Source: Psammoneis japonica
Taxonomy: Eukaryota
Length of the DNA stretch: 64,000 nt
Assembly: GCA_008632985.1 (NCBI GenBank)
Contig: QPGO01000027.1
Coordinates: forward strand, 620,001-684,000
Reading direction: 5' to 3'
The position numbers and the translations under genes are program-made. Numbering within the stretch: position 1 is the first letter of the stretch; every line of letters starts with the position of its first letter. This document shows positions 4,258 through 60,028 of this stretch, in pieces. A model generated the notes under the pieces. That model saw only the letters and a list, made by a program, of their open reading frames with translations. It was not told the origin of the DNA and made no database searches.

Positions 4258-6654
4258 ACAAAAGATCAATTACTTAACAAGAGTCATTGTTGTCAGTATA
4301 GGGAATTCTGACATACGACGTCCAGACGATTGAAGCACCTACGAAGTAAAGAACGAACGAACGTGAGGCCCTCGCTCAAAACAACACAGGAAAAAGACCA
4401 CATGACAGCAGCAACAGCCAATGCTAGATTGTGCCACCAAACCTTTTCCCACCAACAATGCCAATGCATTGCATGCCACATTTTGCTCTGACAAGCACAT
4501 CCATGAAAAGAGACAGGTGAAACAAAATCCAAAAGAGTGGGCGAAAACTCCTCCTGTGATTTTGTTGTCATCCACAATCTCCAATCTCACAACTTCAACA
4601 GCTGATGCTTTTTTGCCACCAAACTTTTCCCACCAACAATGCTGACACATGACATGCTTCATTGCACTCAGAAAGTGCACACATGAGAAAAGAGAGAGGT
4701 GAGAAAGAAAGAAAAGCTCGAAAATTGACGAACACTCCTTCTGAGATGTTTTGCTGATGTTCAGGCTCTTTTCTCAAAAATGTCACATTTCAATTTGTCA
4801 ATTCTTGACAGATTGAAGAGTGCAGCATCTGTCATTCAGAAAAATGAAGATTTTTCTCGAAAATGTCGTTTTTGTGCACATGCTTTGGCGGTTCTTGCGC
4901 GGCTGGAGCATGTCAAAAGGGGAGACAAGGGTTGACTCAAGGGCGCGGAGCATTTGTTGTGGCAATCTGCAATCTGTCACTTTTGGAAAAGTCTGGGAAC
5001 AGCTGGCAAATGATGTTGCTTTTGTCTCTGAACATTTGAGCAACTGCATGGGTTGCTCGCTGGCTGCAGCGGCACCCAGGCAGCAACTTCTTCTTGCAAA
5101 GATGTTCATGTGGCTTGGGTCCCCCCCACCTCTGAGCATCAAGACAGCCAACTGGAGCCAAGGGAGGTTGCTCCCTGGTGAGGCATTGATTGACACTTCC
5201 AAGGAAGGGAGTGTCTTTCAATGCTGTGGGCCCAAAATCTCAGTCGCAGCAGGGCTGTGCTGCCCTCGAAAGCTGGCGCATGTGGGTTGACTGCTCTTGG
5301 CATCATGACTGCCACCACCACTGCCATTTTGACTGCCACCATTGCAACTGCTGCCATTGAAACTGCTGTTGTTGTGACTGCTGCCATTGAAACCACTGCT
5401 GTTGGGACTGCAGCCGTTTGCTGCTGGCGCCATCGCGGCTGCTGCCACCCGGACTGCACTGCAACTGCTGCAACTGCAACTGTGATTGTTGCAACTGCCA
5501 TCATTGTGGCTGCTGGTGCCATTTGAACTTCTGTTGTTGTGACCACTGTTGTTGCAGGGGGCTGGTTGCCAGGAGCTGTGACTGTGCCACTGTTTGGACT
5601 GCGGCCGCTGTTGAAGCTTGAGTGTGCTTTTGCTTTTTGCCTCAGCTGGCAATTCTCTCTGCATCTTGCTTGTTCTTGAAACATCCTGTTTTGCCTGACT
5701 GTGCCCTTCCTCTGTTTTTGGTCCCCTCATGCAAGTGCTCTTTTGCAGCTGGTGCCTTGAGATTTTCCAAGGCCTGCTGAGAGTTTGTTTTTCCTCGTGT
5801 CTCTTTTTTGCTTGTCAATCAATTTTTGCTCCAAACCCTCTTGCCTTTCTTTTGCTTTGGCCACTTGCTGCTCTGCAATGACTGCTCTCTGATGCTTGCT
5901 TCCTTGTCTGGCATGTTTGGAGAATCTCATTTGTGTCAAACGCCGCTGCACGAGTGAGCTGAACCTCAGTCAGAACAGCACCAAAAGGTGCAAATCGCAA
6001 CAAGGCAAACAGCAAACATTTGACATCTCGCTGCTTCCATTGCCAGTGCCCCACCCAGGATCTGGCCCATCATCATCCCTGGAGTGAAACCAAACCAATC
6101 ACTGCCACGGAGTTCACCATGGATGCTGCCCCCCAGCAGCTTCTTGTGCCACTTCCTGAGTGCTGCTTGCCCCAACACCAGCCACCTTGCAAAGCACAAC
6201 AAAGAATTTCAACCTCACTCTGCTGCTCTGACAGAACTGCAAGCACCACATTTGGCAACAGTGCAATGACATTGATGCAACAACCAAGAAGAAGCACCCC
6301 AACAGCTGGAACAACATGTGGTGGGGGGCACCAGCAAGGTTGAGGTTAAACAATTGCACAAAGTGCCAAAAAGTTGACACACAAGTGCAACACATTTGTC
6401 AAAAGTGCAGCCAACATGCAAGAGCCCTGGCCTTGAAAACTCACCCAAGGCTGTCAAGAGACAATGATGGCTCAAGATTGATCAACTCTGGATGATTCAA
6501 GATGACAAGATTCTCTGCGCAGGTGCTGTTGATTTCTTTTGACTTGCTTCACATGGAGTTCATTCTCGCCCACACCATCATTGACAACTTGCCATTCATT
6601 GTCAGGTCATCCATGCAGCAGATCAAAGAGAAAGGAAAGGAGTCCATTGAGAAA

Positions 6655-8048
6655 CCAGTCTTTTGCTTTGACAGTTGAAGCAACTCAGTGAACATCTCGC
6701 ACAAAGTGCTGTGGCAGAACTTGGTGAGCATCTTCTGCCCAAGCTTTGGCTGATGGTCAGTGGTGCACTTGTTGCTTGTCTTGGGGTGTGGTGGCACCAT
6801 TCCCAGCATTGACCAAGGGAGTGGCTGCAATGACACTTGTCATTGAAGCTGCCCAATGCTGCAAGAACAGGTTGTGCTTGCAAATGACCAATGTTGTCAC
6901 AAAGGGTGGAATCTTCAAACAGCACAACCGGGCAAACATGGTGTGACCCAGATGGGCAGCCATTGCCGAGTTGATCCAAGAAAGATTTGAGATCATGCTC
7001 TGCTTGCTTCCACCAGTCACCAGTGTTGAGAGAGTCACAAATGTGCTCATTTGTTTTGGGACAGCACTTCTCATCATTGCACATCCACTGACAAGACTGG
7101 ACAACCCAGGGATCACGAAAGACCCTTCTCACACAGTGCTGCAGAAAGGAGAATTGGGGCACATGCACATTGGGGGGAAAGCAGGGCCCACATGCACTGT
7201 GGAGCAAATGGGCTTTGGGAGCCAACAAAATCAAAATGTTTGGCTTTCATGCATTGCAAGGCTGCAGAGCAGGAGAGAGACTTGCACTCACAGTCACTCT
7301 CCTTGGCACATTTGGCCCAAGAAAAAAGCCTTGTGCAAAGCGTGGGAGAGACGATGCTTCTTCGTCATCACAGCCAACTCTTCCTCTGCTGGATGAAGCT
7401 TCTTGGTGGCATTGGTGTCACAAATGCAGGGAGGTCACAACAGTTGGAGCTTCTTCTGTCTCCTCCAAATCAAGTGCACCAAAGCAGTGCAATCCTTCAT
7501 CGTCATTGTCATTGTTGGGGGGGAAGAGGATGACGTGAAATGTTGTGCTGAGAGCATGTCAAAGTCCTCTTCAAGGAAAAGGATGTCATCATAAAAGATG
7601 CCATCATCAGGGGATTCTGGGGCAAGACACCCAGTGCCAAGTTTGTCTGGCTGTGGTGCAGGATGAGAATTGGCAACAGCGTCGTCAAAGGAAAATTCCA
7701 ACACCAGCAGTTCACTGGAGGAGGGATTGCCATGGGTGGAGGGTTGAAACTCATGATCAATGCCATCTGGAAAAAGGTGGGATGGATCACCATCATTGAG
7801 AGACAGGGACAAGAATCCTTTGGTGCTTGAATTGAGGGATTGGTTGGAAGGCACTGATGCACCAAAAGAGACAGAGGCACCACTGTTGCTCAGAGAGCAA
7901 TGAGGGGAGGAAGATGCATTGCCAAGGCCACAACAAAAGAAGGAAGAGCACTGGGGATGCCTTTGAAAATGTCGGCAGAGAGCATGCCGGTCATTGTTGT
8001 CAGACATCCAACTGGGACAGAGTGGATTGTGACAGGGGTGCGCCACTG
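6655..8048 (-). mobile_element. Plavaka-like transposase relic, copy 1
   Basis: ICDSLNTGDWWKQAE...CPVVLFEDSTLCDNIGHLQAQPVLAALG resembles the Plavaka pattern Y...NTGDWW..PIILF.D.T..D..GRL..EPV..TLG. Frameshifted, and homologous in inverted orientation to 14622-16350. Confidence 0.65.
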
Positions 8049-10624
8049 TCATTGTCAGATTTTAGGTCGGCAGGTGGCTTGTGGTGTGTGCTGTGGGAAA
8101 AAAGGACAGATGCAGCACAAACAGAGCAAGACAGAAGGGAGCCAGCTGACAATTGGAAAGAGAAGGAATGAAATGCATGCAAACCTGACAAGTTTAATGA
8201 TGCACACACAAAAGGGACAACAGGCAACTTTTAAAACAAGAAAAACCAATTGAATGATTTGCAAATTGACAACAATCAACAACAAGAATCAACGTCCATG
8301 TGCCAAGAAGATCGGCAGGAAAATCAGGCAAATGTGTGGAATTTTTTATGATGACAATCATCACTCTGGTTGAGCACAGAAACATGTTGAAGATGAATGG
8401 AGCAAAAAACCAAACCAGCGGATGCAATTGTGGCACTTGATCCACCACACTTGCACTCTTGCATGGTCACATGACAATGTCAGACCTTGCCACTGCAACA
8501 GAAGCAAAAATCAATCGACTGCTCTTGCTTTTCTTGAGAGTGCACAAGAGAGAAAAAAATTGAGAAAGTGAGAAAATTGAAAAGCACATTTTGACATGTT
8601 GGCATTGTTTTGAATTGCAGTGTTCACATTCAACTCACTTTGAACATTTGAAAGAGACAATGTTCCCACTCTTGGCTCCATGAGATGAAGAGACTTGAAA
8701 CCCCACCGTGTTGGTGCTTGTCAACACCCTCAGAATGCTTCAACATCATTTCTTCCTCATTGTTGGCAACTGAGTTTCTTTAATTTCTACATGATTTTGG
8801 CGAAATTTTGCATCATTTTATGGTGCAATCATCAGGCGATCCATTCAACAACTTTTAACATTTTTTTCTTCTACACCATTCTCGAGTGTCTTAAGAATGG
8901 CGCAGGGCAGGCGCACTGTCCAAAACTCCGAGTGCGAACAGAGACACATGCACTGCAAACTTGGCCATTTGTTTTGTGTCGAAGACAAACACATCCATCA
9001 ATCAGAGTGTGAACCACAGAGCTTGCATGCAGAATTCTACGGGGCAAATGTCACAAAAAGTCCCGCCTGGGACTGGAGCCCGTCTGCCGGCGTGGCATGT
9101 TGAAAAATGCACTCAGCTTCAAACGAAGACAATTTGTCGTGAATTGCACACAAAACAGTCACATTGGGGAAAACATCATGTGTCGAACAATGACTGTGTT
9201 TGTGCAGTGCACCATTGTGGCAACAAATTGGAAAAAAAGAGTGTCTGTGCACCTCGCCACTGCCCCAAAAATGGCATGAGACATCAAACGCAATGGCCAT
9301 CTGAGTCGCCGGTGTGGTGGCCATGCCACAATGCCAGCCACGGCAGCAGGGCCCTGCATGCATGCAGGCAATGCAGCATGCAATGGCACACACCCACACC
9401 CACAAAAAAAGACAAGTGGCCAATGCTCCCCGCAGGCCTGGTTCTGTGCAAGCCCATGTGTGCAAACGGAGTGCCATTTTTTGCTTCCTGCCATCCACAA
9501 TTTAGGGGCCACCAAACTTTCTTCCCACAAGAGCAACTGAAGTGCTTGCTCACCAATGGAAGCAGAGCCAAAGGAGCTGTGTGCGACAACTCTCTCATCC
9601 ACCACTGTCGCTGTGTTGCTTCCATTGGACATCTCATCTTCAGGTCCATCGCATCCAGGGTGGTGCCCACCTGGGACAGGCCATGGGTCCTTGATGCCAC
9701 CCTCAGCACACCATTGAAGATTTTTGTGATTGTTCTGGCCCTGTCCACGACATCCGTTGATTGGAACAGACACTCTGCAATGGAGGAGCACTTTGGCTTC
9801 ACGATTCTTGTGGCAAACTGTGTGTTTTTCTCCTTTTCCCCAGGTTTTGGCAAACAGCTCAAACTCTTCATGACAAAGCTCCCACAGACAAGGCTCCTGT
9901 TTGCAGTGGCTGCAAATGGTTGCCTCCTTTTTGATCTTGACCTTCTTCAGTGGCAGAGGATGGTTGGAATGCCCGTCAGATTCGGAGGAAGACATGTTCA
10001 CAGCCGCGGCTGTTGAGTCTTGATTTTTTGTGGGGAAGTGGTCAAACGCCATTGGGGTCCACGGAGAACAATCAACAACTGCGATTCTCTGCAATTGCCA
10101 CTCATGCAGTCATTTTCTGTTGGCCGCTGGAACTTGCCATCTGTGCAAACAACAAAGACATTTGCAGTTTGTTGCTCTGCAAAAAAAATCAAGAGATGTC
10201 ATTTCTGCACTTGCTGTGGGGCAGAATCTTCCGGCTGATCGAATGTTTTGCCATTGCCCCGCACTGTTCGTCTGAGGAAAATGAAATCTTCAAGACATTT
10301 CCTTCTGGCGTGAAAACTCCGGGATGTCAAGCAGTTTCCAACTCACTTGTGGTGAAGAAGTCATCATTTGTGGGACATCACGCCCAAAACAGACTGCTGC
10401 ACTGACTGCACATGCAATGACCAATTGACTGCAATCCCACTGCATGCACGCACGCTCTGTCGTGCGTTTCGTTGATTCTCGCCATGTGTTGTGTTGCCGG
10501 CAGCACTGCACAGCCCTGTTCAACAAAGTTTAAAAGTCGCACAGGGCTGCTTTGTAGACATCACATCAACAGACTCCAGCCGCATCAACTGCAGCATGGC
10601 AATGACCCGCTGTGTCACATCTAA

Positions 10625-11170
10625 TTGTCCTGCTCCGTTTTTGGTCATGTGGCTGTTCCTGATTTAATCAAGAACGAAGCGAGCACTGCTGCACTTGAAT
10701 GCATGCTGGCCTGTGACATGACGACGGTTGGACAGGAAACCCAACATGAAACCACCCTCACATCCGCCCTTGACAACGCCGGCATTTGCCTCATCCCTTT
10801 CACCTTCGACCACTTTGGAGCCCCAGGCTGCTTCGCACACCGCCTTCTCTTTGGAGCCGATCAACAACACCCTGTCCCCGCCACACCAGCACCTCCTTGG
10901 AACACCGAATCTTCTTTCCAACATCCTGCCACCCATGCTGCGTGCACCTGTGCACAACAATCCCCATCCGCCATCCTCCCCTCCACCACCGCCAACTGGA
11001 AAAACACATCTGCTGCATGTTTCGGGGGCTTGACCCACCACACCTCAACTCCATCACAATGGGGCATTCTTCAAAGCCGCTTGCTGACCAACTCACCCAC
11101 TGCTCCACCAATCTGCGCTCCCAGCTCGCCAACCCCAGCCCCAAACCCGCCCCTTGCCCTGCTCGCATGA
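10625..11170 (+). mobile_element. Possible non-LTR retrotransposon C-terminal (RLE-type) relic
   Basis: LIPFTFDHFGAPGCFAHRLL resembles the F.PF..E.FG..G..A..L tail of RLE-bearing non-LTR elements. Heavily degenerate. Confidence 0.35.
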
Positions 11171-13799
11171 CTCAGCACAGCTCCGCCCCTGCTCTGCATC
11201 TGTCCCTCCCCCCACGCCACTGGGTTGCGTTGCACGTGAACTCCTCATGCATGTGCACCAGGCAGTTTCCCCAACCAACAACAACACAGGTCGACTCTTT
11301 GTTGGTGGAATTCTGCACCCCCGCCAGCAAGTGCAGATGATGACTCAAGCTGTGAAACCAGAAGTCATGTGATGGAGAGCTGCAAAGACCTGTGACGATT
11401 GAACAACAGCGGCCAGCTGCAGATGCATTGTGAACAAAAAGCCAACAAGAACAATCCAAAGTTGTGCCCATTCTGCAAGAAGCAACAAGCGGGTTTGCAG
11501 AGCTTTTTTGCACTGCAAATGAGAACCACGTTGTTCTTCAGAGAACTCTGATGTGTGGTGGGTGCTGTGAAACAGCTCTTTGGAATTTCAGAGAATGACA
11601 GCAACATGGTCCACCCTCCTTGACTCTGGTTTAAAAATGTGCCCCACCTCCCACCTGCCTCTGGGTCTGGAGCGGCGTCTGTCATGTGATGGGATGTGCT
11701 GGCCCATCTTCTCTTGCTCCCTGGCTTTGGCTGAGCACTGCTGCTGGAGTCAGAGCTTGCAGGGCTCTGTCCATTGTTTTCACCATGTGGCTCACTTGAA
11801 CATCAACCACTTTGCCAGCCAAGCACACTCAGCAAGTGGTGCAGTGACAACTTGACCTTGTGCTTCCACGTGTGAACTCAAACCCCAGTTTCTAACCACA
11901 GAGTGAAAGTGCGCATCCCCACATGGATTGACTGGAGTGAAATGCTTGTGTCAATCTGAATCTAAGTTCTGGAAGCACCCCAGAGCAAACATGGTGTGCC
12001 GAGTTGACTGACACCATTGTTGTGCTGAAGCTGTTGCTGAATCTTTTCCCTGGCGCTCCTTGTGTGCAGGCTGAAAGATCTTCTTGGGTGTGGGTCTTCT
12101 TCTTGGGATTGGAGGAAGACCTGTGACTCTCATTGCCTTTGTCACAGCCACAACTTTGGCCTTGGTTTTTACCACTTGTTCCATCTCCTCCCCTGCCACT
12201 CATTGTGCAGATGTTTGGTGTTCAGCTGGCTGCATGAAGATCATTGGTGTGTGTGGGTGTGTGCACAAGCAGCACTGAGTGCAGCTCCAGCAACTCTTTG
12301 GAGCAAACCTGCAATGACTGTGGGTTGCCAAAAATTGTCAATGTAAACTGCAAACTTGTGATGATGTCACAGGCACCCAGTGGTGCCGAATGACAAAACA
12401 AATGACTCGCTCCTCCAAAAAATGTGATGAAAGTCAAAGGTGAGGGGTCAATGATGGCAAAGCTCTTCTCACAACAAGTCACTCAGCAAACCATGCCAGG
12501 AGCAAAATCATTTTCCTTCAACACATCTTTGCACCTTTCAGCACCCCTGTGACCCAGATTTTCAAACACACTCCTGCTGCTCCCATCGATGCTTCAAAAT
12601 TGAGGCCAACATCATGCAAGACTGGGGCCCTCTGGAATGTCAACCAAATCAACATCAGCTGCCAGTGTGCAAAAAATGCAGCCCACCCCTTTCATCTTGA
12701 ACAAGCTGCTCTCTTAGAAACTTTCCTGGGCAGATGGGCAGCCACAAAGCCAGAGGAAGCTCCGCCCATTTGTTTGGCACTGTTTCTTGGTGTTTTGATG
12801 TTGCTGTCATCTTGGCAGTCTTTCAAAGCACCCAGGATCTTCCCCATTGTGTGTCAGACAGGCAAGGGTGCAGCCAAGAAAGGGGGGACAAAGCCAGCTT
12901 GCACACAAGTGAGTCATTTTGCAGCACATGGACCAGTTTGACACATGTTTGCTCAGTGAGAGAGTGACAAAAGAGGATGCCTGAGAAGAAAAGTGCTGCT
13001 GCCAGATGACCCATGCCAGCAAAGAAGGAGAAACCAAGGTGTGGCAAGGCCAAAGTTATCTTGTCATTCCAGGGAGGAGCAACTCAATGACAACATCATG
13101 GGAGGACCAACATTGAGAGCATGGCACACCTCCTCACATCATGTGGTGTTGGCACAATGAGGTGTGAGCACCTGCTAGCTGTCATGAAATTGCTCAAAGA
13201 AATGCCAGCACCAGCACAGCTCTCATGTGTTGCCTCCATCAGAAATTGACAAACACACTGCCACCAACAAGTTTGCCAAGCAACTGAAGTGCCCCCACTT
13301 CCACACATCTGAAACTTGAGCATGCTGCTTCAGAGCATGCTCCTCAAGGTTGGGGGAAATGACAGTTCACACTGTGTTGTGATGAGCAGGAGGAGAAGCA
13401 ACCCAAAGTCATTGTGGAGTGTGACATCTGTGTGCAAGCAAATGTGGCAAAGCATGGCTGCACCCCCAAATGTTGGGCCTCTGGTGCAATTGACCCCCCA
13501 AAAAGAAAGTGCAATTTTGTCACACTGGCTGCCTGTTTTGCTCAACTCACAACAAGAAGGACAACAAGTGTTGTGTGTGAGATCATGTGCTCCCTCAACA
13601 AAGCCTTGGCAGGAGACATGCTTGGTGCCAACCATCTTGCTGACCAGGTGGTGCAGTCAAGCACAGCACTGATGCCAAGTCACATCATGACAAGCAAGTG
13701 TTGCACACTGTTCCCACCTTGTGCATGCACTGTTTTGGAGAGAGAGAGAGAGAGAGAGAGAGAATGTCTTCATGAGTTTTGCTGCTCTGGCTCAAACTG

Positions 13800-49711: not shown

Positions 49712-50600
49712 TGACCTCTTTGAGGAAAAGCATTCCTTGGTCAGCCACCTCAAAGTGCCCCGTCTTGTGTCTCTCCGCACCAGCAAAGGCCCCTTTCTCA
49801 TGGCCAAAAAGCTTGCTTTCAAGCAATGACTCAGGCAGTGCCAAGCAGTTGAGCTGGACCAGGGGAAAATCCACCCTTCCCAACTGATGATGGATGATCT
49901 TGGCCAGGACCTCCTTTCCCATGTCTGTTTCACTGAGAAGAAAGATCAAGATCAATGATTGTGCAATGCAGGGGATTTTGGAGAGGATTTTGTTCATCGG
50001 CAGTGAAGCAAAGGCACAGCCAAAGGCATTGACCAGCTGGGCATCAGCCATCAGATCGGTCACGAGCGGCACCTCGCCCTGACTGCAGATCCTCTTGTTC
50101 TCCTCCAGCAAGCATGCAACCTGGGCAAAGAGGAACTCGGTGCTTGATGCATCATCCAGGCAGAATGCCAGACCAAAAGCACATGGAGTGGTGCATTGTT
50201 GCCCCCCGCGTCCAGATCTGATGCAAGCTCCTTGAGGCCCGACCGCACCAGAGCGCCAGATGGACATGGCGGTTTGTGTCGGAGAGCAGGATGTCGAACT
50301 CCCTGGGGGCATTGCACCTGATGATGTGCATGTCGTGGTGCACTTTTTGGATCACAGTGGAGATGCAGTTGAGAGCCACATCAGCCTTGTGGTGGCTGTC
50401 TGCCCTGATCCTCTCCAGATTGTCCAGGCTGATCCGGAGGAGGGCAAGCTTTCTGCTGGTGCAAACGGTCCAGTCCAGTTCTTCAGCAAGGCAGTGATGG
50501 AAGAACGCTCAGAAACAGAGCCCCATTTCTGGGTCCTGGATCACCATGAGGCAGAGTTGGGCATTCTCAAAAGAGATGGTGATCTGCTGGGCCATGCTGG
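49712..50600 (-). pseudogene. Bacterial-type GAF-tail / GGDEF-like / sigma-54 activator AAA+ gene fragment
   Basis: AQQITISFENAQLCLMVIQDPEMGLCF*..LAEELD..LALLRISLDNL..EFDILL, then SETDMGKEVLAKIIH..LNCLALPESLLESKLFGHEKGAFAGA..GHFEVADQGMLFL (degenerate GAFTGA). Contains a stop and a frameshift. Confidence 0.85.
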
Positions 50601-50615
50601 TTGGGTGGTCCCTGT

Positions 50616-51657
50616 TCACCAGGCAAACTCACCGAGCCCCACGCTTTCAACCCGATGTTTGAGATGCACATTGGAGCCATTCACAATGATGATTCCAAGG
50701 CCTGTCTCCACCCCAAAACCATGCAGGGCATCTTCCTCAATTGCAAAAACATGCTCAATGTGATGCATGTGAAGGTTCCTTTTGGCATCGCCCAGGTTGG
50801 CAAAGCTTTCCTTGACAAAGTGACACCTCACAATTGTGTTTTTTGCTCACGCGAGTTCAAACAGATGGAAATGGAATGGTTCTGCCATCCCGATGACTCC
50901 CAGGCATGGTTCCGGTTCTGGAAAGAAGAGCACATGAAGTGGTGGAAAGGTCTTGGTGTCCGGGAAGATCTGCTGATCTTCCATGACCATGCTGAAGATG
51001 AACTTGCCCACTGCTCAAACGCCTGCATTGATGTTGAGTGCATGCACCCCTTCACTGATCCAAATTGTGATGAGATTAAGAGCATTGCCCACTGCAGATG
51101 TTTTGACCTGACTCAGCACCAGGAACACTCCAGTCAGAAGATGGAACATCTCAACCAGGAAACCAAGGAACACTTCATCCCCAACATCATCAAAGCTGCA
51201 TTGGGCCTGACTCGTGCTGCACTCGTGGTGCTTTGTGAAGCCCATCATGAAGAGTGGGTTCCCAAGGCCAAGGACGGAACCAAAGGCGGCATCATTGAAG
51301 CTGAACCTGGAGGAAAAGCTCCCGAGGGATGCAAGAGCAGGGTTGTCATGAATTTCCTGCTGTCGCTGGCCCCTGTCAAGGTTGCATTTTTCCTGCTGCT
51401 TAAGAACAAGCCCAAGCTGGTTGCCAAGACCCAGGATCTGTTCATGGCACATCGTGGCAAGTGTGTGTTCTTCTGCAACCAGGTTGGAGCCATTGGATGC
51501 CACTGCTGCCAACAGGATGAAATTGGCACACCGTTCTGTGTGACCGTAGACTTCAACATGCTGGAAGACAACACCGTCACCATTTGCTGGCACAACTTGA
51601 TGAAGCAGGAGCACATCAAGATCAACAAACTTGATGTGTTCTTCAACAAGCGGCTGA
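50616..51657 (+). pseudogene. glyQS: Bacterial-type alpha2 glycine--tRNA ligase fragment (N-terminus missing)
   Basis: TEP.AFN.MF, CLHPKTMQGIF (YLRPETAQGIF), PFGIAQVGKAF, REFKQMEMEWF, ELAHCS (ELAHYS), IGCHCCQQDEIGTPFCVTVDF (IGRRYRRQDEIGTPFC). Catalytic Arg residues lost and no Tyr in the ORF. Confidence 0.92.
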
Positions 51658-52899
51658 AACTTCATTCTTTAACAGGATTTACAGGGTCAAGCAACAGGGT
51701 TGTTTGATTGTGTTCATCCTGCAAATCCTGTCCAAAATGGCCTTCCAAGGCTGGTCATGCTTTTGCATGGTTCACTCACTGTGAATGATGAGAAATCCCC
51801 TCTTAAAGTCTGCCAGGAAATTGGTGCCCAGGGTGTGGCATGGCACTGCCCCAAATGTGGTGATGACATCAGTGTTGAAACCAGCTTCTGTGCCAGCTGT
51901 GTGCATGATGAGAAGACGGGAAAACTGCCATGGAAAAAGCAGCTGCCAAGAAATGTGCCCTCATGGCCTTCTTCATGCTGATCATCCTTGGTGCTCTTGT
52001 GGGAGTTGGCTGCTTCACAGTGGAGCGCATGCCCTTGTTCAAGGAACAACAGGCCACAAGCCATGTGCAGGGGTTGTGATTTCCGAAAAACAGGGTTTGG
52101 GCTGATTTCTGGTGCAAAACTCACGTAGAAAATTCGTGTGGAATGTCTTGTTCATTGTGCTTTTCCCGTGCTTTGCAAAAAACAGGCCACAACCTCAAGG
52201 AATCGATTGCAGTCATAATTGTTGACACTTTGCGCACTCACTTTTTGATGACAAACACGACGATGTCCACCGTTTGGCAAAATTCCATCATTGGAAAATG
52301 TTTGCCGTGGTGGGACCGTGTTGAAGTGTTGATCGAATTTCTGAAAATGGAGTTTTGAAGTGTTCATGCACAGAATCATGCCACTTGTGTAAAAGTCATC
52401 ATGCAAAGTGTCAATGGTTTCAGGGGAAAACGATTCCTTGAGGTGTCGGTGGAGCAGAGAAGCACGGCAGAAGCACGAGAAAAAAATCGGCCCAAACCCC
52501 AATTTTTGTAACTTTTTCTACGTAGAATTTCTGCGTGATTTTTGTGCCAGTGCACATGGCTTGTTCACTTGGAGGTCATCACCAAGAAGGCAGAGGCCCT
52601 CAAGGTCAAGCTGGACAAGAAGGCTCCCATGGCCCAGGTTGGCAAGATGATTGAGCTCAAGGATCTGAAAGGTCACTACCTGCACAGCAAAATCCTGGAA
52701 CTTGACAACAGCCAGGTTCTGTTGGACATGGGCAACCAGGGCCACAAGACCATTGCCTGTGCCTTGCTGGCAACAAATGTCAGGGTCAGGGCAGATGGTG
52801 CATTTCATGAAAATTTCTGAAGAATTCGGTGGCAAACAGATCCCCTGACCATGATTGCCAGTCATGTTGACACGTCCCTGCCCTTTTCATGTGCTTGCC

Positions 52900-53900
52900 G
52901 GATCAGGGATTTCAGCCCCACAGCCATGAGGAGAACTTGGTGAAGTGCATTTGGTGTGCCCAACCTTGCCACAGCCACAGCAATGTTTGTTGGTGTTGCC
53001 AGCAGTCAGGTTGGACTCTGGGAGTTTGCTGGCTGGGGCAGGCCAATCTTCATCACTGACAAGCTCACCATGGGTCTTGGTGATCCATCCAATGAGACCA
53101 ACAGGTCCAAGTTCCACACAGTCAGTGTCCTTGGGGACCTCCGCGGGGACATGCAAACAACACTTGTGGCATTCCAACCTCTTGACAGAGCCAAGCTTGT
53201 CAAAGACTTGGCAGTTGAAAAACTCAGAGGATGTCTTGGATGCCCCAGTTAAAACAGCAGATCAAGCATCAACCAGCACAGTGCTTGGTCCGTCTGCATG
53301 ATTTTGAGCAGGCGCAGGGCCTCGGTCACAAGCTCGGTGCAATCCTCACCAAGGCATTGATCAAGAGTGAGCTCCTTCAACTTGTTCTTGGCAGCCTCAA
53401 CGTCAATGAGAGCACTGGCGTTGCAGGCATCGAGAGCCATCGCAAGCAGGACAGACCCTGGGAGATCCTTGCAGTTCTTCGTGTGATTGAACTTGGCCTC
53501 AATCTTTTCACAGAAGGTGTCAGTGATGCAGGACTTGATGATGAGTTGCAAAAGCCAATGTCTTCAATCTCACATTGGGTCTCAAGGTCTTCAACAGTGA
53601 AGGTGTGAAGATGATCAAAAAGGTGCATGACCTTGCCATTGACGTTCTTGAGATGGCAGAAGGTTTCTTGTCCATGTGACTCAATTAAGTCCTGGACAGT
53701 CTTGACAGAGTGGTCTTTGTCCAGTTCTGCACTGGAGCCATTGGATGACTCAATCTGACCATTGAACTTGGAGGCAGCAGATGAGGGAAGTTGATCACAA
53801 AGGGATTGCTTGATGGGATCAACAGCTTTCAGATGGTGATGCTGCAAGGCAAAATGGCAGGTGCACTTGTCTTTCTGGCCATGCTTGTCATTCAAAGCAG
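52900..53900 (-). mobile_element. LTR retrotransposon gag relic (copia-like)
   Basis: LPGSVLLAMALDACNAS..D...A...L..L.L..CLGED and a terminal CCGCGKVGH knuckle remnant. Frameshifted. Confidence 0.45.
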
Positions 53901-54519
53901 AACCACCCAGACAGACACTGTGAGAGTGGTGGGTGCCACTGTGAGTTGGCACTGGGATCAAAGGAGTGGGGTTTGTTGAGGCTTGCATGGCAGCAAAGGC
54001 TTCAGCAAACCTCTTGAAGGCATCAGGATCCATGGAAGTGATGGTCACACATGAGGATCATTCGACACAGAAGATCAATCAGTCAAGGAGCTGGGCAGGG
54101 TTGCAACACAGATGATCACCATTGGATTGTGATGCAGAAGATTGCTGTTGGATTGTGACATAGAAGATCGCCATTGGAAGGGATGTTGTCTGTTACAAGA
54201 TGAACAAGTGGCAGCAACTCCATCATGAGTTGACACCGGTGTGTGAATTGGGGTCGCAACCACTTGGGATGCAACAATGCACTGCATGGGATGGAGAGTT
54301 CAGGGCTCTCTTGAGGTTGTAAAACACAGTGCAGAGGATGACAGGATGTGGTTTGGGGCAACAAGATGCACCAAAGATGCGAATTGTGAGAAGATCTCAT
54401 GATGAATTGGAAATGACATCATGACCTGACGGTTGTGTGTGTCACTCTGATTGCTGTTGCCAGTGGCTGCAGTGTGACCGGGGGCATCATCCGTGAATCA
54501 GACTTGACGTTGGTCCTGG

Positions 54520-55170
54520 TCACCTTTGGCAGACTTGACCTGCTCAATCCGCTTGCAGAATTGCACGAACTCAGACACAGTGTGAGCCAACGGGTCAAAA
54601 TTCTGCAGAGTCATGATCTTCTGCCACGCGTTTGGCACTCCGCACTCAAACAAGTCACAGAGTTCATCATTGGGCAATGACTCCGGTGTTTCTCCTCCTT
54701 GTGTCACAGGCAGAAACTGAGAGACACAGCCATTGCTTTCAACAGCTCTCGTGACATGGTCACAAGTGGAAACCTCAGCGGGCTTGCGCGCGAAGCGTTG
54801 CAGATGACGTTTCTGCAGCAGTGCCGCCCTGTGTGGGAATGCACTTTCCTTTGGCTTTGCTGTGCATGCAGCATGCTCAGCGTTGGTTTGAGAAGCCTGC
54901 TCTTCAGCAGCATTGTCAAAGGTTGTCAGGGCATCACCCTCGAGAAGCCTGTGCACAAGTGCATGCTTCGCCGGCCCCACAGAGTGATGGTGTTGCAGAG
55001 AAAAATCAGAAGTTCCTCGCATGTTCCCACAGAAAAGTGTGGCAGACCCATCTTGTGCATTGGACTGTCAGCATCAGCAGGGTCGTTACGCAGCTTGAAT
55101 GTCTGGCACTCACCCTGCTGCATTTCCTTCTTCTCCAGCCACACAAACAGAATCGGCGGCTTGAGATGCT
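54520..55170 (-). mobile_element. LTR retrotransposon gag relic (Ty3/gypsy-like)
   Basis: FKLRNDPADADSP..F..GT.EELL, GPAKHALVHRLLEGDAL, FP.RA..LQKRHLQR..RKP, GVPNAWQ..M..QNFDP..FVQFCKRIE. Confidence 0.55.
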
Positions 55171-55919
55171 TCTTCATGGTGGTTTTTGAGTTTGTCGGTC
55201 CTGCCAGCATGTCTCAGCATTCGTTTTCGTAGATTTTGTAACCTCACACACTGTGCGGGAGCAACATTGCTGTGCCCCATGTGTGCAATGGGCAACAAAA
55301 ATGCAGATGTGTTGCAACTGCATCGATGTGAAAATTGTGAGCTGGTTTGTGTGCAGAGAAATGGAATCGTGCGAATGGGGAATCTTGCCCAATTTGTCAC
55401 ACCAATTGATCGTGCATTCGCATTGTGGATCGTGCAAATCATGCCATCATGCACCATGCATGAGTGATGTCATCATGTGGAATCACGCCACTGTTGTGGG
55501 CCAGACAACAGGTTAGAGTGCTCCACACGGGTGCTCTCTTGGCATCCTTCTAGATTGCCTGAGACATGGAGCCATGCCCTCCTGTGGTGTGCTTCCCAGG
55601 TGCGTGTTGGCAATGCTGTGCTGCCATGCACAAGAGGCTGTGCATGGTTTTGCTGTGTTGTCCAGCACTGAGGCACGCTGCAGATTGATGATCATGCACA
55701 GTCTGTGCAGCTCATGTCCCTCAAAACTCTCTGATCAAGTCTCCATGACTGGCCTCAATTTTTGCACCACACTCTCTTCTTGTTCTGAGTGGGGCCAAGA
55801 AGGAAGCAACAAAAAACACGACCTGCCATTGGCAGAAGTGCTGTGGGAAAAGATCTGATCTTGCATCTCTTGAGCTGTGGCACATGACGCAGATGATCCC
55901 GGTGTCGCTCTCCTGGAGA

Positions 55920-55965
55920 TTCATCGTGGGACCCCACAAATGCGGAGGGACACACAACCCGGAAA
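55920..55965 (+). repeat. Degenerate solo end of the 44118-44369 MITE family
   Basis: TTCATCGTGGGACCCCACAAATGCGGAGGGAC versus the intact TTCATCGTGGGACCCCACAAATACGGAGGGAC. Confidence 0.85.
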
Positions 55966-56461
55966 CAGAGCAATTTTGATTTTTTGCTCATGACGCATGA
56001 GACAACAAAATGAACAAAGATGCCGTTGCGTTTGACACTCTCATTCTAGCTGCTGAAACACTCCTTCAGCAGCATGTTGTGGCACCGATGTCTCTCAAGT
56101 GCATTGTGAACAGTCAAAAGGCAGAGGCTCCAAAACAATGCTGTTCTGCTTCCAACAAGTCTGCTGACAGTTTGCATGCCAATGCTGTTGCTCAGGCAGG
56201 CATGCGACTTGGGAAGGAGCTTGCTGACACCAACCAGGTGGAAACCATGGTTCAACTGAGATGCAGCAGCCATGCGCGAAGAATGACTGATGCTGGGGCT
56301 CAATGCCAAACAGCAAACAGGCAGAGATGGGAGCAGAATCAACAAACGCATGATGAGGAGAATGTGACCGCTGAACAACCCCCCCCCCCCGCGAGTTGGA
56401 AGAAGAAGGGGCAGTTGAGCCTCCACCCACAGCGGAAGGAGAGACAGACCATGAAGTGGAG

Positions 56462-56634
56462 GTGGAAGAGGAAGAAGGTGCTCCTCCAGCTGAGGAGGAA
56501 GAAGCAACTTCACCAGCAGCATCTGCGGAAGAGGAAGGAAAGGAAGAAGAAGAAGGTGCTCCTCCAGCTGAGGAGGAAGAAGCAATGTCAGCAGCAGCTT
56601 CTGTGGAAGAGGAAGGAAAGGAAGAAGAAGGTGC
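56462..56634 (+). repeat. 81-bp tandem repeat encoding a Glu/Ala-rich peptide
   Basis: GAAGAAGGTGCTCCTCCAGCTGAGGAGGAAGAAGCAA occurs twice, with flanking partial units. Confidence 0.7.
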
Positions 56635-59600
56635 CACAACACGCAATCCCTTTGAGCATCCCAAAGACTGTGCACCTAGAAATGAATCAAACATTGGTCA
56701 GCATGATGCGCAGGATCTCAAAAGGAAGAAGAAAGGCACGAACAACATGACTGGAGCCAAGAAAAGATGAAACCTGACGGATCTTCCACAAAGTGCACGA
56801 GCTTCCTTCAACCACAACATGAGAACAAAATTTGGCTGCATGACAAAGAATGCATGCGGTGCACTTGAGCACTGTGCACTCGATCCTGAAAGTGAATCAT
56901 TCACCAAAATCAGCCCAAAAGTCAGGGTGACTCTTGCGATCGAGACTGATGTGAAGCATTTCAAATCAAACAAAGAAGCAGAAAGTGGTTGTCTCACAGA
57001 ATGAGAAAAAGTGGACAAACTCAAAAGGGAGAGGCCGTCACTGATTCTCGCATCCAACAGCAGGGAGGATGCAAGGAGCACCTTCACTGCAGTTGAGTCA
57101 TGCCTGAATGAAGCCAAGCAGTTGTGCAAGGAAAAGGAAGAGGCCGGTGGGACAGCTGGTTTTCTGAGTTGCAGACTGAAGAAGTGCATGAGCTGCATGG
57201 TGTGGGCAATGAAGATGAGGCAGAGGAATTCATGAAAATGGCAGTGGATCCGGGGAAGGAGGGCAAATGGACTGAATCCAACACTGGTCCTCATCAAGCA
57301 CGTGAAAAGCTGATGAGGCGATGGCAATCAAACCCAGTGTGGTGTTGCAACAATGCATGAGTCGCAACAATGTGTGACACAAATGCACCTCTCTGGTTGT
57401 TCTAGTCTGAGACAGTCACATGGATCGCTTCTTTCTTCATGGGCTGGAGAGGCTGACAATGGAAGAATCAATGCTGCCCAGCGTTGAGGCTGACACTTGA
57501 CTGAGCACTTGGTCCTGCGACTGAGACAAGTTCTCATGCTGTGAGGTGGCAAAGTTACGGGAATGATCCACAGCACACTGTTGTTGGCCTCCAGACCTTG
57601 ACTCTGTTGTCCCATGATGGAACGGCATCCTTGTCTGCTTTTTCAGTTGAGCCACATCAATCCCGTCCAATGCATGTTCCTTGTCAAACAATTCTTCCTT
57701 TCTCTTTTTTCTGGCATCGTAAAAACCAGGAACCTTGTTGAGATGCTCTCGAGCCTTTGTCACCATGGTGAGATGCCAGTCTCGAGCAGCAGCACTTTCC
57801 ATGCCCTCAGTGGCCATGTCTGTGGGGAAGGCCCATTCAAATTTCTGCTTCTGTGCCATCCAGGATTCATTTGTTTTGTCTTGTCTCTCAACACCTTGCA
57901 TTCCGCCAAGAGAAATTTTTCAGTGTGCGCACCTTTTATTTTCTTCATCTCTTTCTTGCTGTCAGACATCATCTTCAAGCTCTTCAAGGGTTGCTTGAGG
58001 TGGCTTTGGCAGTGCCTTTTGATTGACAGGGTTGGGGTTGCTCTTGTTGAAGGGATTGGCTTTGTGACAATCAAGGGCAGCCTTTTCTCCCGGTTCTGCA
58101 AGGAAGCAGTTCATGGGATCGACTTGGCACTTCCCTTTTGGTGACCGCAGGTTCCTCCTTTCCAAGAGTTTCCGGTGGACTGTCATGGTGCACTCCCATG
58201 TGGCTCACATCCCACAACTGACAGACCATGGCGCAAAACGTGCAACCAAGATTTAGAGGCCTGTCACTCTTTGAAATGGAATTCAACAAGTGTCGCTTCA
58301 AGAGACGCCCTGGCTCTTCCTTCAGATTCGTGTTGCAGTTCACATTTCTTGCGGCAATGATTTTTTTCACACTCATCTGCATTCTGATGACAGAAAGTGA
58401 CTTCTCAAAGTTGGGTGTGCATTGCAGTGGCATGGTGCATCAACTTTGTTGACACACCTGTCAATGCATTCCTCTTTCAGTTTCAAGCTTCCCAAGTCTT
58501 GCGTGCCGCATCCAATTGAGGTGTCCTTCTGTTGGAATTCTTGGTGTCGATCGGTGCACACAATGGCTCCTTGTTCCGTCTTCTTGAACACCACAAACTT
58601 CTTGAACATGGCTTGATCTTTTTCAGACATGGTGCATTCTCGCTTTGCATCTTCCTCAGCAATCCTCTTGCATCCAGCGGCATTTGCAATCGAAAAGATG
58701 AGCTGATGGAGGATGTTTGCGGCAACAAACATGTCTCCATCTCCATCGCCATGAGACAGTCCAGCTGCAGGCTCCTTTGCTTCTTCCTCCTTGTTCACTG
58801 TCATTTGTGGGGTTGTGAAATGGCATGTGGGAGTGCACCTGTCTGCAACAAGCCTTTTGTCAAGATTGTCCAAACTGATCCCCAGCTGATCACCTTTCTG
58901 AACATCGAGTTGGCGCATGAATTCACTGCCTCGGCAATGTCCTTGTGTCAAACGGAACTTTTTGAGAGGGAGAGACCCCAATTGTGGAAGTGTGAACTCT
59001 TGGCACTTGACGATGACTTGGAAAGGACCTCTGCTGAAGTCCTTTGGAAAGGTGTTGGCTCATTGCTCACAACATTTCTGATGAGCTCTGCACAGACGAA
59101 CGCCTTGTTGCAAATTCTCTTTGTCACGTCTGTCACTTTTCCGTTGTCTTGCTCTCTTGAGCCTGTCATTGGGTGCTCCACAAAAAGACTCAAGAGGCTC
59201 TTGTCATTGTTGGCAAACCCTTGCAGCCAGTCTGTGGAGCCGTTCCAATGGAGAGCCGGATCTCGGCGCGCTTCAGGCTGAACCAAGAAAGCATGAAGTG
59301 CCAAAGCAAGTGAACAAAAATTGGTCCTCACATCTGCAGAGAAACATCCCAACTCAGCTGCCCGCAAATTTACAGAAAACGACCATCCGCGCGCACCAGT
59401 GGCAACTCCTTCCCCCCTGTCGCAACTGCAAAAACCACTCCGCTCTTTTGTTCACGCGAAGGAAGACACAAGAAATCATCAAGAGCTTCAAAGCCGCCAA
59501 TGTCAAAATGTGAGCATGATGACTCTTGCTGTGTGACTCCAGTGCAGGAGCATTTTCTCGAGCTGGCGTGTCTCGGCAAGTGGCGCACTTGTGGCAGTCA

Positions 59601-60028
59601 GCACGGCCATCGCAGCTGGGACAAATGGGCCCTTCACAAAGTCACTGTGCGCGCATTTCTCCAAAGCAGTGCAGGCACAAATGGCGCCCACACGGACGCA
59701 TGGTGAAGTGTGTCTTGCTCTTCAGTGCGCTTCTTGACACGCCACATTTCCACAGCTTTCCTCTGGGGAGGCGGCCTTCCTTTTTGATGACATGATGACC
59801 TTCCACAGTGCCAAACGGTCTTCTCATAGAGTGTGACAAGTGAGTGGAGTAGAGGATTGAACTGCACAACAACTGTGTGCTCTCCATCGGACGCAACAGC
59901 GTTTGTGGTCATGCATCTTTCATCGAGAAAAAATCAAAAAATCAAAATTGCTGCATTTCCGGGTTACGTGTCCCTTCCTCTTGTGCGCTTGTCCGCATTT
60001 GGCTCGCTCACGCACATCCGCGTGTCAC

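Follow-up and report, generated by a model that had tools for sequence, protein, structure and literature searches.

Bounded TA-poor blocks in a diatom genome point to TpA-specific hypermutation acting beside decay of methylated CpG

Results

Five TA-poor blocks with sharp edges

Approximately 37 kb of the 64-kb window, the whole stretch of Psammoneis japonica DNA analysed here, is taken up by five sharply bounded TA-poor blocks, while the gene islands between them, and the genes they carry, have normal composition. With a probability of roughly three in four, we consider the blocks to be putatively silent nuclear DNA of the diatom which was rewritten in place by TpA-specific hypermutation together with a separate decay of methylated CpG, a process of the same kind as that in the alga Bigelowiella natans. 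The initial annotation had already described five blocks depleted of TA and CG and rich in TG and CA; that observation is confirmed, and its coordinates proved good to about 100-200 bp (Table 1). The transitions at the block edges take no more than a few bases, and they coincide with insertion or rearrangement breakpoints.

Table 1. Blocks, relics and repeats in the 64-kb window (o/e, observed/expected)
Feature	Coordinates	Strand	Remarks
Hypermutated block 1	1..1935		TA o/e 0.08-0.10, CG 0.19-0.21; right edge ~1935-1950; continues beyond window start
Hypermutated block 2	4380..20640		48 TA in 16.2 kb; sharp left edge 4373/4380; two inverted Plavaka-like copies and UPF0014 relic
Hypermutated block 3	33900..38000		TA o/e 0.00-0.08, CG 0.02-0.31
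Hypermutated block 4	40521..43960		12 TA in 3.4 kb; start is exact end of unmutated 2-kb duplicate
Hypermutated block 5	47100..59960		46 TA in 12.9 kb; carries bacterial-type gene relics (Pfam)
UPF0014 family relic fragment	5969..6208	-	Pfam PF03649, E 1.2e-6
Plavaka-type transposase relic, copy 1 of repeat 6651-8048	6626..7246	-	Pfam PF18759, E 1.7e-4, under curated cut-off
Plavaka-type transposase relic, copy 2, inverted repeat 14622-16348	15849..16349	+	Pfam PF18759, E 5.2e-5, under curated cut-off
Unmutated duplicate copy 1, gene with Crinkler-N domain	38563..40520	+	Internal control; normal composition; 98.2% identical to copy 2
Copia-type (Ty1/copia) pol C-terminus relic	40521..41042	+	2 in-frame TGA stops; 120 intact homologues, 59-72% identity
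Inverted repeat, arms 42667-43021 and 43664-44022	42667..44022		Right arm spans edge of block 4
TauD/TfdA-family dioxygenase relic	43161..43640	+	Pfam PF02668, E 1.4e-6
Unmutated duplicate copy 2	44981..46953	+	98.2% identical to copy 1
Sigma-54-dependent activator relic (AAA+ domain), bacterial type	49224..50351	-	Pfam PF00158, E 2.5e-28
Bacterial-type glycyl-tRNA synthetase (GlyRS) relic	50583..51704	+	374-codon frame without stop and without Tyr; PDB 8u2q, E 6.6e-70, 348 residues

Within the blocks, the 1-kb bins gave TA o/e ratios of 0.00-0.15 and TG and CA ratios of about 1.5-2.1, compared with 0.37-0.76 for TA and about 0.7-1.3 for CG in the island bins. In a set of 35 block bins TA o/e ranged from 0.00 to 0.10 (median 0.05) and CG o/e from 0.02 to 0.57 (median 0.27). 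When TA was counted per kb the two classes were disjoint, with a maximum of 10 in the blocks (146 counting windows) and a minimum of 23 in the islands (94 counting windows). TA is ~12-fold depleted, and its o/e ratio is far lower in the blocks than in the gene islands, in keeping with the initial annotation. The balance of dinucleotides is equally clear: relative to islands, the blocks have lost 37.5 CG and 33.2 TA per kb and gained 36.3 TG and 38.6 CA, the gain of TG plus CA offsetting the loss of TA plus CG almost exactly. The changes are concentrated at TpA, as had been proposed, and at CpG. Mononucleotide composition is the same in blocks and islands, and overall G+C stays constant because TA->TG/CA and CG->TG/CA offset each other. 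TG and CA are present at 109.6 and 109.5 per kb of block, and their order along the blocks is random, free of strand runs (runs-test z -1.1 to +0.7).

The CG deficit accompanied by TG/CA excess is the signature of methylated-CpG decay, and the setting is alike as well, with CG lost and TG/CA gained in transposon-rich, putatively silent DNA. Such decay accounts for no more than roughly half of the TG/CA gain, however, and methylated-CpG decay cannot remove TA. The initial annotation's proposal of a second, strand-symmetric A:T->G:C process that acts at TpA in sharply bounded domains beside CpG decay is supported. One route suggested for it was error-prone patch synthesis of the Pol-eta type, changing A to G at WA once deaminated 5mC has been repaired. 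WA is indeed the motif in which Pol eta mutates A, and TA loss does share its blocks with CpG decay, but the other WA dinucleotide, AA, is spared, at 80.9 per kb in the islands vs. 81.4 in the blocks (+0.5 per kb), and Pol eta is therefore disfavoured. Moreover, TA is saturated where CG still stands at 0.5-0.6 of expectation, and two environmental copia copies described below lose TA and keep CG. We consider this route highly improbable.

Support of the block sequence by read-built contigs

The base sequence of the blocks was compared with contigs assembled from a public run (X1; word depth about 60-68, as for single-copy sequence), so that read support here means assembled contigs and not raw reads, from a run which is possibly the source sample of the assembly itself. 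These contigs reproduced the hypermutated sequence, as the initial reading implied: 0 base differences were found over 5700-6632, 8016-8597, 14111-14654, 16555-17553 and 19453-20661 (one of these contigs has 1 gap), 1 difference over 11028-13727 and 4 over 9891-11056. The pattern is unusually clean, and the contigs come from a run of unrecorded library type that is possibly the source sample; on these grounds one could invoke errors of assembly, errors of base calling at modified bases, or DNA of a foreign organism naturally without TA and CG. Against this stand the exact reproduction of kilobases by k-mer contigs at 60-68x, the stops, frameshifts and directed codon changes that separate the relics from intact homologues, the CA<->TG double differences between repeat copies, and the normal composition of relatives of the same element. 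An artefact of either sort is thus very unlikely. In another run (X2), the island at 20668-23999 was covered and block 2 was represented by two short matches only; neither is read as evidence on expression.

Direction of change in a copia relic

Comparison of the copia relic with 120 intact homologues identified 30 differing conserved columns, of which 9 were restored by reversal of one TA change and 10 by reversal of one CG change, compared to 2 restored by any other single transition. All four conserved Tyr residues were replaced (Cys 3, His 1), and the TA changes fell on both strands, 5 to TG and 4 to CA. In DBP10, an intact control gene, TA or CG reversal restored 2 of 54 differing columns and Tyr was kept at 9 of 9 positions. 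In the relics, Arg residues encoded by CGN have become Cys, His, Gln, Trp or stop, a pattern that DBP10 does not share. Tyr-free proteins were found neither among the 120 copia homologues nor among 120 sigma-54 homologues, and across 80 environmental copia loci the median o/e was 0.74 for TA and 0.90 for CG. Judged from these alignments, the TA-poor state of the copia relic is derived and its intact relatives are not TA-poor; the expectation that intact copies of the same family would not be TA-free was borne out.

The strands affected also bear on editing of RNA or cDNA before integration by an ADAR-like or APOBEC-like activity, whereby the copies would have arrived already mutated. Coincidence of block edges with insertion or rearrangement breakpoints would suit such a history, but the copia relic is hit on both strands, TG and CA in the blocks show no strand runs, and the effect extends equally to a DNA transposon and to bacterial-type genes, neither of which passes through an RNA intermediate. 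ADAR prefers G 3' of the edited A, whereas the 3' preference deduced here is for a pyrimidine. The preference of ADAR for U 5' of the edited A, given in the accessible parts of a preprint on B. natans (10.64898/2026.01.13.699255), does agree with a TpA target. Taken together, we regard arrival in an edited state as extremely unlikely.

Other relics in the blocks

Plavaka and copia elements as well as bacterial-type genes all bear the block signature, and transposon remains account for most of the recognisable content. No viral gene was recognised in a Pfam scan of 269 ORFs (stop to stop, 75 aa or longer), a set in which shorter or frameshifted relics may be missed. Relative to intact homologues the relics show stops, frameshifts and directed codon changes. 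The best solved relative of the TauD relic is TmpA (6npb, E 7.8e-8), and the target Tyr is now His. Every organism-labelled match of the sigma-54 relic is from Bacteria, with identities of 35-60% across 23-47% of the query; 26 differing columns, confined to residues about 110-222 since frameshifts make the remainder of the alignment unreliable, comprise 1 explained by TA, 7 by CG and 13 unexplained, which weighs against the main reading. For the GlyRS relic the best representative (P0361) is 52% identical, and the Atlas clusters nearest to that representative are 100% Bacteria. At the 27 Arg positions of P0361 the relic has His 10 times, Cys 5 times and Gln once, and the 169 mismatches between the two include 42 explained by CG, 15 by TA and 14 by other transitions.

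Each relic quoted in the initial annotation was recovered, namely copia pol, GlyRS (AHYS -> AHCS) and TauD (LAYT -> LAHT). Its statement that conserved Tyr always reads Cys or His holds for copia (4/4) and is slightly too strong for GlyRS, in which 10 of 13 Tyr of the best homologue follow the rule (Cys 7, His 3) and the rest are Phe (2) and Asp (1).

Repeat copies were converted independently

The two Plavaka copies are 84.6% identical, and they differ at 29 sites by CA<->TG double transitions; two further block repeat pairs have 7 and 8 such doubles. Shuffling gave means of 1.45, 0.42 and 0.45 for the same three pairs, with the observed value reached in 0 of 2000 shuffles, and the unmutated duplicate pair in the islands has 0 doubles. 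Since the copies differ by these double transitions, each block copy was converted independently. The direction of change is visible at the DNA level in the inverted repeat with one arm, the right, extending over the edge of block 4: TA is kept outside the block, the matching sites of the in-block arm are TG or CA, and the single TA common to both arms sits in TTAA.

A repeat-triggered, RIP-like system, in which duplications would be detected and then mutated, TA and CG being simply the target context of this lineage, has to be weighed here. Much of block 2 is high-copy, with summed contig depths of 15,634 and 4,560 vs. about 65 for single-copy sequence, and the dominance of transposon remains points in the same direction. 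Yet the mutated stretch 9891-13727 is matched by long contigs at a depth of 64-66, close to the 61.6 of an island contig, bacterial-type gene relics are hit too, and the hypermutated NCLDV region of B. natans is described as single-copy in the accessible text of the preprint (10.64898/2026.01.13.699255). Further, the two 2-kb duplicates, 4.4 kb apart and 98.2% identical, are fully unmutated, although this is not decisive because the duplicate may be very recent. A repeat trigger is, in our judgement, quite unlikely.

Loss of TA is separable from loss of CG

In a DNA-level screen of the 80 environmental loci only two (L052 and L073) carried the signature. Their TA o/e was 0.25-0.26 and their CG o/e 0.79-0.86; Tyr was changed to Cys or His at 0.70 (L052) and 0.58 (L073) of aligned Tyr positions, compared to an Arg loss of 0.17 and 0.18. 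Because these copies lose TA without losing CG, the two processes are separable. Likewise, just within the edge of block 4 CG survives over some tens of bases that have already lost TA, and throughout the blocks the loss of TA has reached saturation everywhere, with CG o/e ranging from 0.02 to 0.57.

The initial annotation had coupled TA loss to CpG decay under the term 'reverse RIP', and a single machinery converting both TA and CG to TG/CA, either RID/DNMT4-like or a dual A/C deaminase complex, can be envisaged. The two losses share their blocks and edges and jointly balance the TG/CA gain, and their o/e ratios in block bins are weakly correlated (Spearman 0.35, p 0.04). According to the accessible parts of the sources, a RID-related DNMT4 of unknown function occurs in many diatoms (PMC9998398), and 10.64898/2026.01.13.699255 refers to ADAT2-type enzymes with activity on A as well as C. 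Nevertheless, the uniform TA depletion (o/e at most 0.10) against variable CG, the CG persisting at the block 4 edge, the two environmental copies and the near absence of C->T from the B. natans spectrum (10.64898/2026.01.13.699255, accessible parts) all speak against coupling, and we consider one shared machinery unlikely. We thus retain two separate processes, hypermutation at TpA and decay of putatively methylated CpG; in other diatoms, transposon CG methylation depends on DNMT5a according to the accessible part of PMC9998398.

Discussion

Relation to Bigelowiella natans

The initial annotation held this kind of mutation to be undescribed. That claim is superseded by the 2026 preprint of Mettrop et al. 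(bioRxiv 10.64898/2026.01.13.699255), which, in its accessible parts, measures TpA->TpG/CpA hypermutation of integrated viral DNA in B. natans de novo, in mutation-accumulation lines. The spectrum reported there consists of A->G/T->C at TpA only, with almost no C->T, at a rate about 1000-fold over background in some lineages only; an ADAT2-like adenosine deaminase is proposed, and ADAT2 DNA editing in amphioxus and trypanosomes is cited (10.64898/2026.01.13.699255). The diatom blocks have in common with that system the TpA->TpG/CpA changes on both strands; in both cases these changes stay within sharp borders of foreign or silent DNA and leave host genes alone, silence being presumed in the diatom. 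The long-term footprint described in the preprint is similar too: TA-poor, TG+CA-rich clusters rich in transposon, viral and bacterial-type domains.

The two cases differ in several respects. The host here is a diatom (Stramenopila) and B. natans is a chlorarachniophyte (Rhizaria); the targets are transposon remains and bacterial-type relics rather than viral DNA; and TA o/e is about 0.05 here vs. 0.45 in the B. natans NCLDV region (preprint, accessible parts). CpG decay is superimposed in the diatom, and neither CpG nor diatoms appear in the accessible parts of the preprint. The flank preference, with TTAA refractory and TAY favoured, is derived here. By analogy with the preprint, we infer that the same mechanism may operate in both algae. 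Our search of the openly accessible literature returned no report of TA loss or TpA hypermutation in diatoms, and a term search of Maumus et al. 2009 (PMC2806351) gave no mention of either. TpA-specific hypermutation has so far been reported once, in an unrelated alga, and the diatom case appears to be new. About half of the initial reading therefore stands, and about half is superseded or disfavoured.

A possible mechanism and its relation to known systems

In the mechanism that we propose, the A of 5'-TA-3' would be changed to G on either strand, yielding TG or CA, until saturation, and ordinary decay of methylated CpG to TpG/CpA would be added to a variable extent. As the candidate enzyme we infer an adenine deaminase that works on DNA, such as one with the ADAT2/TadA fold; it would act site by site and non-processively, the resulting hypoxanthine pairing with C at the next replication. 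A 3' pyrimidine would be preferred (TAY > TAG > TAA), with TTAA most refractory, as suggested by 109 surviving TA sites and an exploratory tetranucleotide comparison that assumes an island-like ancestral composition. As a consequence, TAA and TAG stops and every Tyr codon would vanish, ATA, TTA, CTA and GTA codons and T|A sites across codons would be altered, CGA would become TGA and AT-rich regulatory motifs would be lost. Foreign and mobile DNA would in this manner be permanently inactivated without AT-rich isochores of the RIP type.

Fungal RIP resembles this process as a domain-restricted, defence-like transition hypermutation which permanently disables mobile DNA and leaves a dinucleotide footprint. 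The direction is opposite, as the initial annotation pointed out: RIP makes C:G->T:A transitions, mostly from CpA to TpA, and thereby creates TA and AT-rich isochores, whereas in the blocks TA is destroyed, CA and TG rise and G+C is unchanged. RIP is also triggered by duplication, while the nearly identical, possibly recent duplicate in the window is untouched. Context-specific base deamination as a defence is likewise shared with APOBEC3 on viral cDNA, ADAR on dsRNA and TadA/ADAT2, but APOBEC and ADAR leave clusters coordinated by strand, on substrates that are single-stranded or RNA, in contrast to the independent, strand-symmetric sites on chromosomal DNA found here. The A34 targeted in ADAT/TadA substrates comes directly after U33, which fits a requirement for T-A. 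We know of no APOBEC-, ADAR- or ADAT-type deaminase that has been tied to a TpA footprint in any organism.

A broader reading is that an ancient enzyme-driven defence, common to diatoms and chlorarachniophytes and possibly SAR-wide, edits adenine at 5'-TA-3' directly in double-stranded chromosomal DNA of newly silenced foreign or mobile elements, independently of CpG decay and with TAY preferred over TAR, until every TA in a bounded domain is erased. We put this forward tentatively, as possible rather than probable. If it is true, the enzyme responsible would edit adenine in DNA naturally and with dinucleotide specificity, and it could be recognised in genomes by a fingerprint of Tyr-free 'proteins' and TGA-only open frames.

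Implications

The fingerprint has a practical side. TGA is the only stop in TA-free DNA, and long spurious ORFs therefore appear in all six frames; ORFs of 150 aa or more number 72 in the 64-kb window, the majority lying in the blocks, and Tyr-free predicted proteins deserve flagging during annotation. An enzyme search can be guided by the refractory TTAA, the 3' pyrimidine, the strand-independent single sites, the independence from CpG and the sharp targeting, and a natural TA-specific DNA adenine-editing activity would interest base-editing research. The window displays the long-term end-state, a saturated, GC-neutral erasure of TA over tens of kilobases. If the process is the same as in B. 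natans, its reach, so far one rhizarian alga, would take in the diatoms, which are a major and experimentally tractable group of phytoplankton. The process is also relevant to the means by which protists disarm transposons, integrated viruses and bacterial DNA, and hence to what becomes of genes acquired by horizontal transfer.

Five sharply bounded blocks are depleted of TA

Sliding 1-kb counts and 200-bp segmentation delimited five stretches of near-zero TA. Both the block coordinates and the relics quoted in the initial annotation are right. In 35 non-overlapping 1-kb bins within the blocks, the observed/expected ratio (o/e) was 0.00–0.10 for TA (median 0.05) and 0.02–0.57 for CG (median 0.27), with TG and CA o/e at approximately 1.5–2.1 in sliding 1-kb counts. 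TA counts per kb did not overlap between the blocks (at most 10; 146 windows) and the islands of normal composition between them (at least 23; 94 windows). When 37,295 bp of block sequence were compared with 24,449 bp of island, CG and TA were lower by 37.5 and 33.2 per kb and TG and CA higher by 36.3 and 38.6, the remaining dinucleotides shifted by no more than 10 per kb, and base composition was the same in both. AA was unchanged (+0.5), which disfavours Pol-eta-type mutagenesis at WA, one of the mechanisms previously put forward. Block edges are abrupt and resolved within a few bases: at the left edge of block 2, dense TA and CG continue through 4373 and both are absent from 4380 on, and block 4 starts at the exact end of a duplicated island segment.

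Features of the stretch (positions in the window; block limits approximate)
Feature	Position	Strand	Remarks
Block 1	1–1935		near-zero TA
Block 2	4380–20640		near-zero TA
Block 3	33900–38000		near-zero TA
Block 4	40521–43960		near-zero TA
Block 5	47100–59960		near-zero TA
Plavaka-type transposase fragments	6626–7246; 15849–16349	−; +	block 2
High-depth segments	8669–9335; 14672–15338		block 2
HA-repeat gene	20657–23038	−	9 tandem HA (helicase-associated) domains; internal DNA repeats 66–72% identical; 3′ end at right edge of block 2
Segment omitted from X2 contig	23430–23506		77 bases, directly upstream of DBP10 ORF
DBP10 ORF	23507–26206		
Chromodomain + JmjC/cupin gene	31098–33686	−	adjoins left edge of block 3; 5′ end ~200 bp from first TA-free sequence
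Duplicate pair	38563–40520; 44981–46953		2 kb, 98.2% identical, 4.4 kb apart
Long ORFs in duplicate	38242–40353; 44387–46765		703 aa, Crinkler-N (E 1.6e-5); 792 aa
copia relic	40521–41042	+	start of block 4
Sigma-54 relic	49224–50351	−	block 5
GlyRS relic	50583–51704	+	block 5
Tandem duplication	56464–56630		block 5; ~78-bp period, 93% identical; Glu/Lys-rich repeat in one frame

The hypermutated bases are genuine. Assembled contigs (library type unrecorded) from X1, a sequencing run of the one public sample containing this stretch and possibly the assembly's own source, reproduced the hypermutated sequence with 0–4 base differences per contig: 0 over 5700–6632, 8016–8597, 14111–14654, 16555–17553 (with one gap) and 19453–20661, 1 over 11028–13727 and 4 over 9891–11056. 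Their word depth (~60–68), close to that of an island contig (61.6), corresponds to single copy. The two high-depth segments reached summed contig depths of 15,634 and 4,560, respectively, vs. ~65 for single-copy sequence, which places them in families of tens to hundreds of genomic copies. Most differences between paralogous contigs and the window were transitions (A>G 54, T>C 60, C>T 47, G>A 47; transversion classes 5–15 each), and contigs joining 8054 to 15055 and 8966 to 15030 indicate other copies without the intervening 6–7 kb.

Block content and host genes

Island ORFs matched Pfam domains DUF6824, HA-domain repeats, DBP10-type DEAD-box helicase, Exo_endo_phos, chromo + JmjC and Crinkler-N. 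All relatives of the DBP10-type helicase that bear organism names are diatoms, the closest being raphid pennates (59–62% identity; top match overall 67%), indicating that the window is diatom DNA without a close relative in the protein collection searched. The segment upstream of this ORF that is missing from a contig of X2, another run, looks like a spliced intron, which suggests that X2, recorded as 'DNA?', is RNA-derived.

Inside the blocks, a Pfam scan of the 269 stop-to-stop ORFs that reach 75 aa identified two Plavaka-type transposase fragments (both under the curated cut-off), UPF0014, a TauD/TfdA-family fragment, a weak double zinc ribbon, a class-II aaRS core with anticodon-binding domain, and a Sigma-54 interaction domain (E 2.5e-28). 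Block 4 begins with the C-terminus of a copia-type pol, for which 120 intact homologues were found (59–72% identity). The Sigma-54 and GlyRS relics are neighbours in divergent orientation. Every match of the former bearing an organism name is bacterial (35–60% identity). The latter aligned with the bacterial-type GlyRS 8u2q over 348 residues (E 6.6e-70) and with human GlyRS only over residues 10–106; its top representative among 1.84 billion proteins, P0361 (52% identity, E 3.7e-110), has an N-terminus beginning right at the conserved core, and the Atlas clusters nearest to P0361 are 100% bacterial. The blocks thus contain defunct transposons as well as one or more pieces of bacterial-type DNA, with the Sigma-54 and GlyRS relics side by side in one of them.

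Both TA and CG were converted to TG or CA

For conserved alignment columns at which a relic differs from the consensus, we asked if the consensus residue reappears when one TG or CA overlapping the codon is set back to TA or CG.

Reversal of TG/CA at conserved columns
Sequence	Conserved columns	Differing	TA-explained	CG-explained	Other single transition	Unexplained
copia relic	137	30	9	10	2	9
Sigma-54 relic, residues 110–222	71	26	1	7	5	13
DBP10, intact control	580	54	1	1	13	39

At conserved Tyr the copia relic reads Cys (3) or His (1), and at conserved Arg it reads Arg (4), stop (2), Gln (2), Trp (2), Cys (1) or Lys (1), whereas the DBP10 control retained all 9 conserved Tyr and 51 of 56 conserved Arg. 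The GlyRS relic is identical to P0361 at 182 of 351 aligned residues; the 169 mismatches comprise 42 explained by CG, 15 by TA, 14 other transitions and 98 unexplained, with Cys 7, His 3, Phe 2 and Asp 1 at Tyr positions of P0361, and His 10, Cys 5, Gln 1, Arg 5 and other residues 6 at its Arg positions. At the DNA level, two repeats span block edges, and TA in the outside copy is TG or CA in the inside copy; the sole TA common to both copies of the block-4 edge repeat sits in TTAA. The conversions TA→TG/CA and CG→TG/CA are thus demonstrated, and not just deduced from composition.

Sites were changed singly and on both strands

Two Plavaka-like copies in block 2 (84.6% identical) differ by 29 CA↔TG double transitions, a number reached in 0 of 2000 column shuffles (mean 1.45, maximum 7), and two further repeat pairs carry 7 and 8 such doubles vs. 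shuffle means of 0.42 and 0.45. This implies that the same ancestral palindromic site was resolved separately in each copy after the copies had parted. On the sense strand of the copia relic, TA-derived changes read TG at 5 sites and CA at 4; in the blocks as a whole, TG is as common as CA and the two are interspersed at random (runs-test z −1.1 to +0.7). Both strands were therefore changed, one site at a time, without processive runs. The changes on both strands, with a DNA transposon and genes of bacterial type among the targets, rule out an edited RNA or cDNA intermediate as the main route.

Of the 109 TA surviving in blocks, 31 lie in TTAA; the environmental copia loci give a baseline of 5.7% of 13,661 TA sites. 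The base 5′ of TA was T 54, C 31, G 18 and A 6 in block survivors vs. T 223, C 201, G 252 and A 206 in islands; the base 3′ was A 54, G 33, C 16 and T 6 vs. A 187, G 185, C 262 and T 248. In an exploratory tetranucleotide comparison, which assumes island-like ancestors, NTGC and NTGT gained more than NTGA and NTGG, tentatively pointing to an influence of the base 3′ of the edited A (TAY > TAG > TAA).

TA loss and CpG decay are separate

The initial annotation had coupled TA loss to CpG decay, a link that our data do not bear out: TA loss is uniformly saturated among block bins while CG o/e spans a nearly 30-fold range, and CG is still present just inside the block 4 edge. The copia family is not intrinsically TA-poor, as 80 environmental loci encoding relatives of the relic have median o/e of 0.74 for TA and 0.90 for CG, and no Tyr-free protein was found among the 120 homologues. 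Two of these environmental loci, L052 and L073 (77% identical to each other), have TA o/e of 0.25–0.26 and CG o/e of 0.79–0.86. Aligned Tyr positions read Cys or His at a fraction of 0.70 in L052 and 0.58 in L073 (loci median 0.05, window relic 0.95), and Arg loss is 0.17–0.18 vs. 0.63 in the window relic. Their surviving TA rarely have a 5′ purine (13 of 45 pooled cases, A in 6; the baseline is 27% for A by itself). L052 and L073 may capture the TpA process (A→G at 5′-TA-3′ on either strand) at a younger stage in another organism, and their loss of TA with CG mostly kept indicates that it also operates outside this diatom and does so without CpG decay. TA loss and CG loss are two processes, not one.

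Trigger

The duplicate pair is free of hypermutation, its copies differing by 10 transitions, 11 transversions and 0 CA↔TG doubles, and stretches at single-copy depth are mutated. A RIP-like duplication trigger is thus unsupported, although the duplicate may be recent. The two long ORFs within it form small normal-composition islands amid hypermutated blocks and may represent a young mobile or recently duplicated gene. Such small, sharp-bordered islands separate blocks 3, 4 and 5, suggesting that the activity is episodic, as in Bigelowiella natans, or that targeting is sequence-specific and not purely positional.

Discussion

The central proposal of a TpA-specific, strand-symmetric A:T→G:C process in silent DNA is supported. 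Its chemistry, supposed to be undescribed, has one description in the literature searched. In B. natans mutation-accumulation lines, 230 of 231 single-nucleotide mutations in an integrated NCLDV and a virophage changed A→G or T→C, each of the 230 on TpA, at a rate ~1000-fold over background in some lines only; the genome carries TA-poor, CA + TG-rich clusters enriched in transposon, viral and bacterial-type domains, and the authors put forward an ADAT2-like deaminase (Mettrop et al., bioRxiv 10.64898/2026.01.13.699255). CpG and diatoms are both absent from that preprint. Our literature search found no report of TpA hypermutation in diatoms, and a term search of Maumus et al. 2009 yielded no statement on it. 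Diatom transposons are CG-methylated through DNMT5a, and many diatoms possess RID-related DNMT4 enzymes of undefined function (PMC9998398). Fungal RIP is a functional analogue, but its chemistry runs the opposite way.

The window is the first diatom case found in our literature search, at a saturated end-state. It adds GC-neutrality, independence from CpG decay, single-site and strand-independent action, a TTAA-refractory and, tentatively, TAY-favoured context, sharp edges, and bacterial-type DNA among the targets. Block stop trinucleotides number 54 TAA, 33 TAG and 960 TGA; because TA-free DNA is restricted to TGA stops, long open frames arise in all six frames (72 ORFs of at least 150 aa in the window, mostly within blocks). 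Gene callers will consequently predict spurious Tyr-free proteins in such blocks, and these could serve as a cheap screen for the footprint in other genomes.
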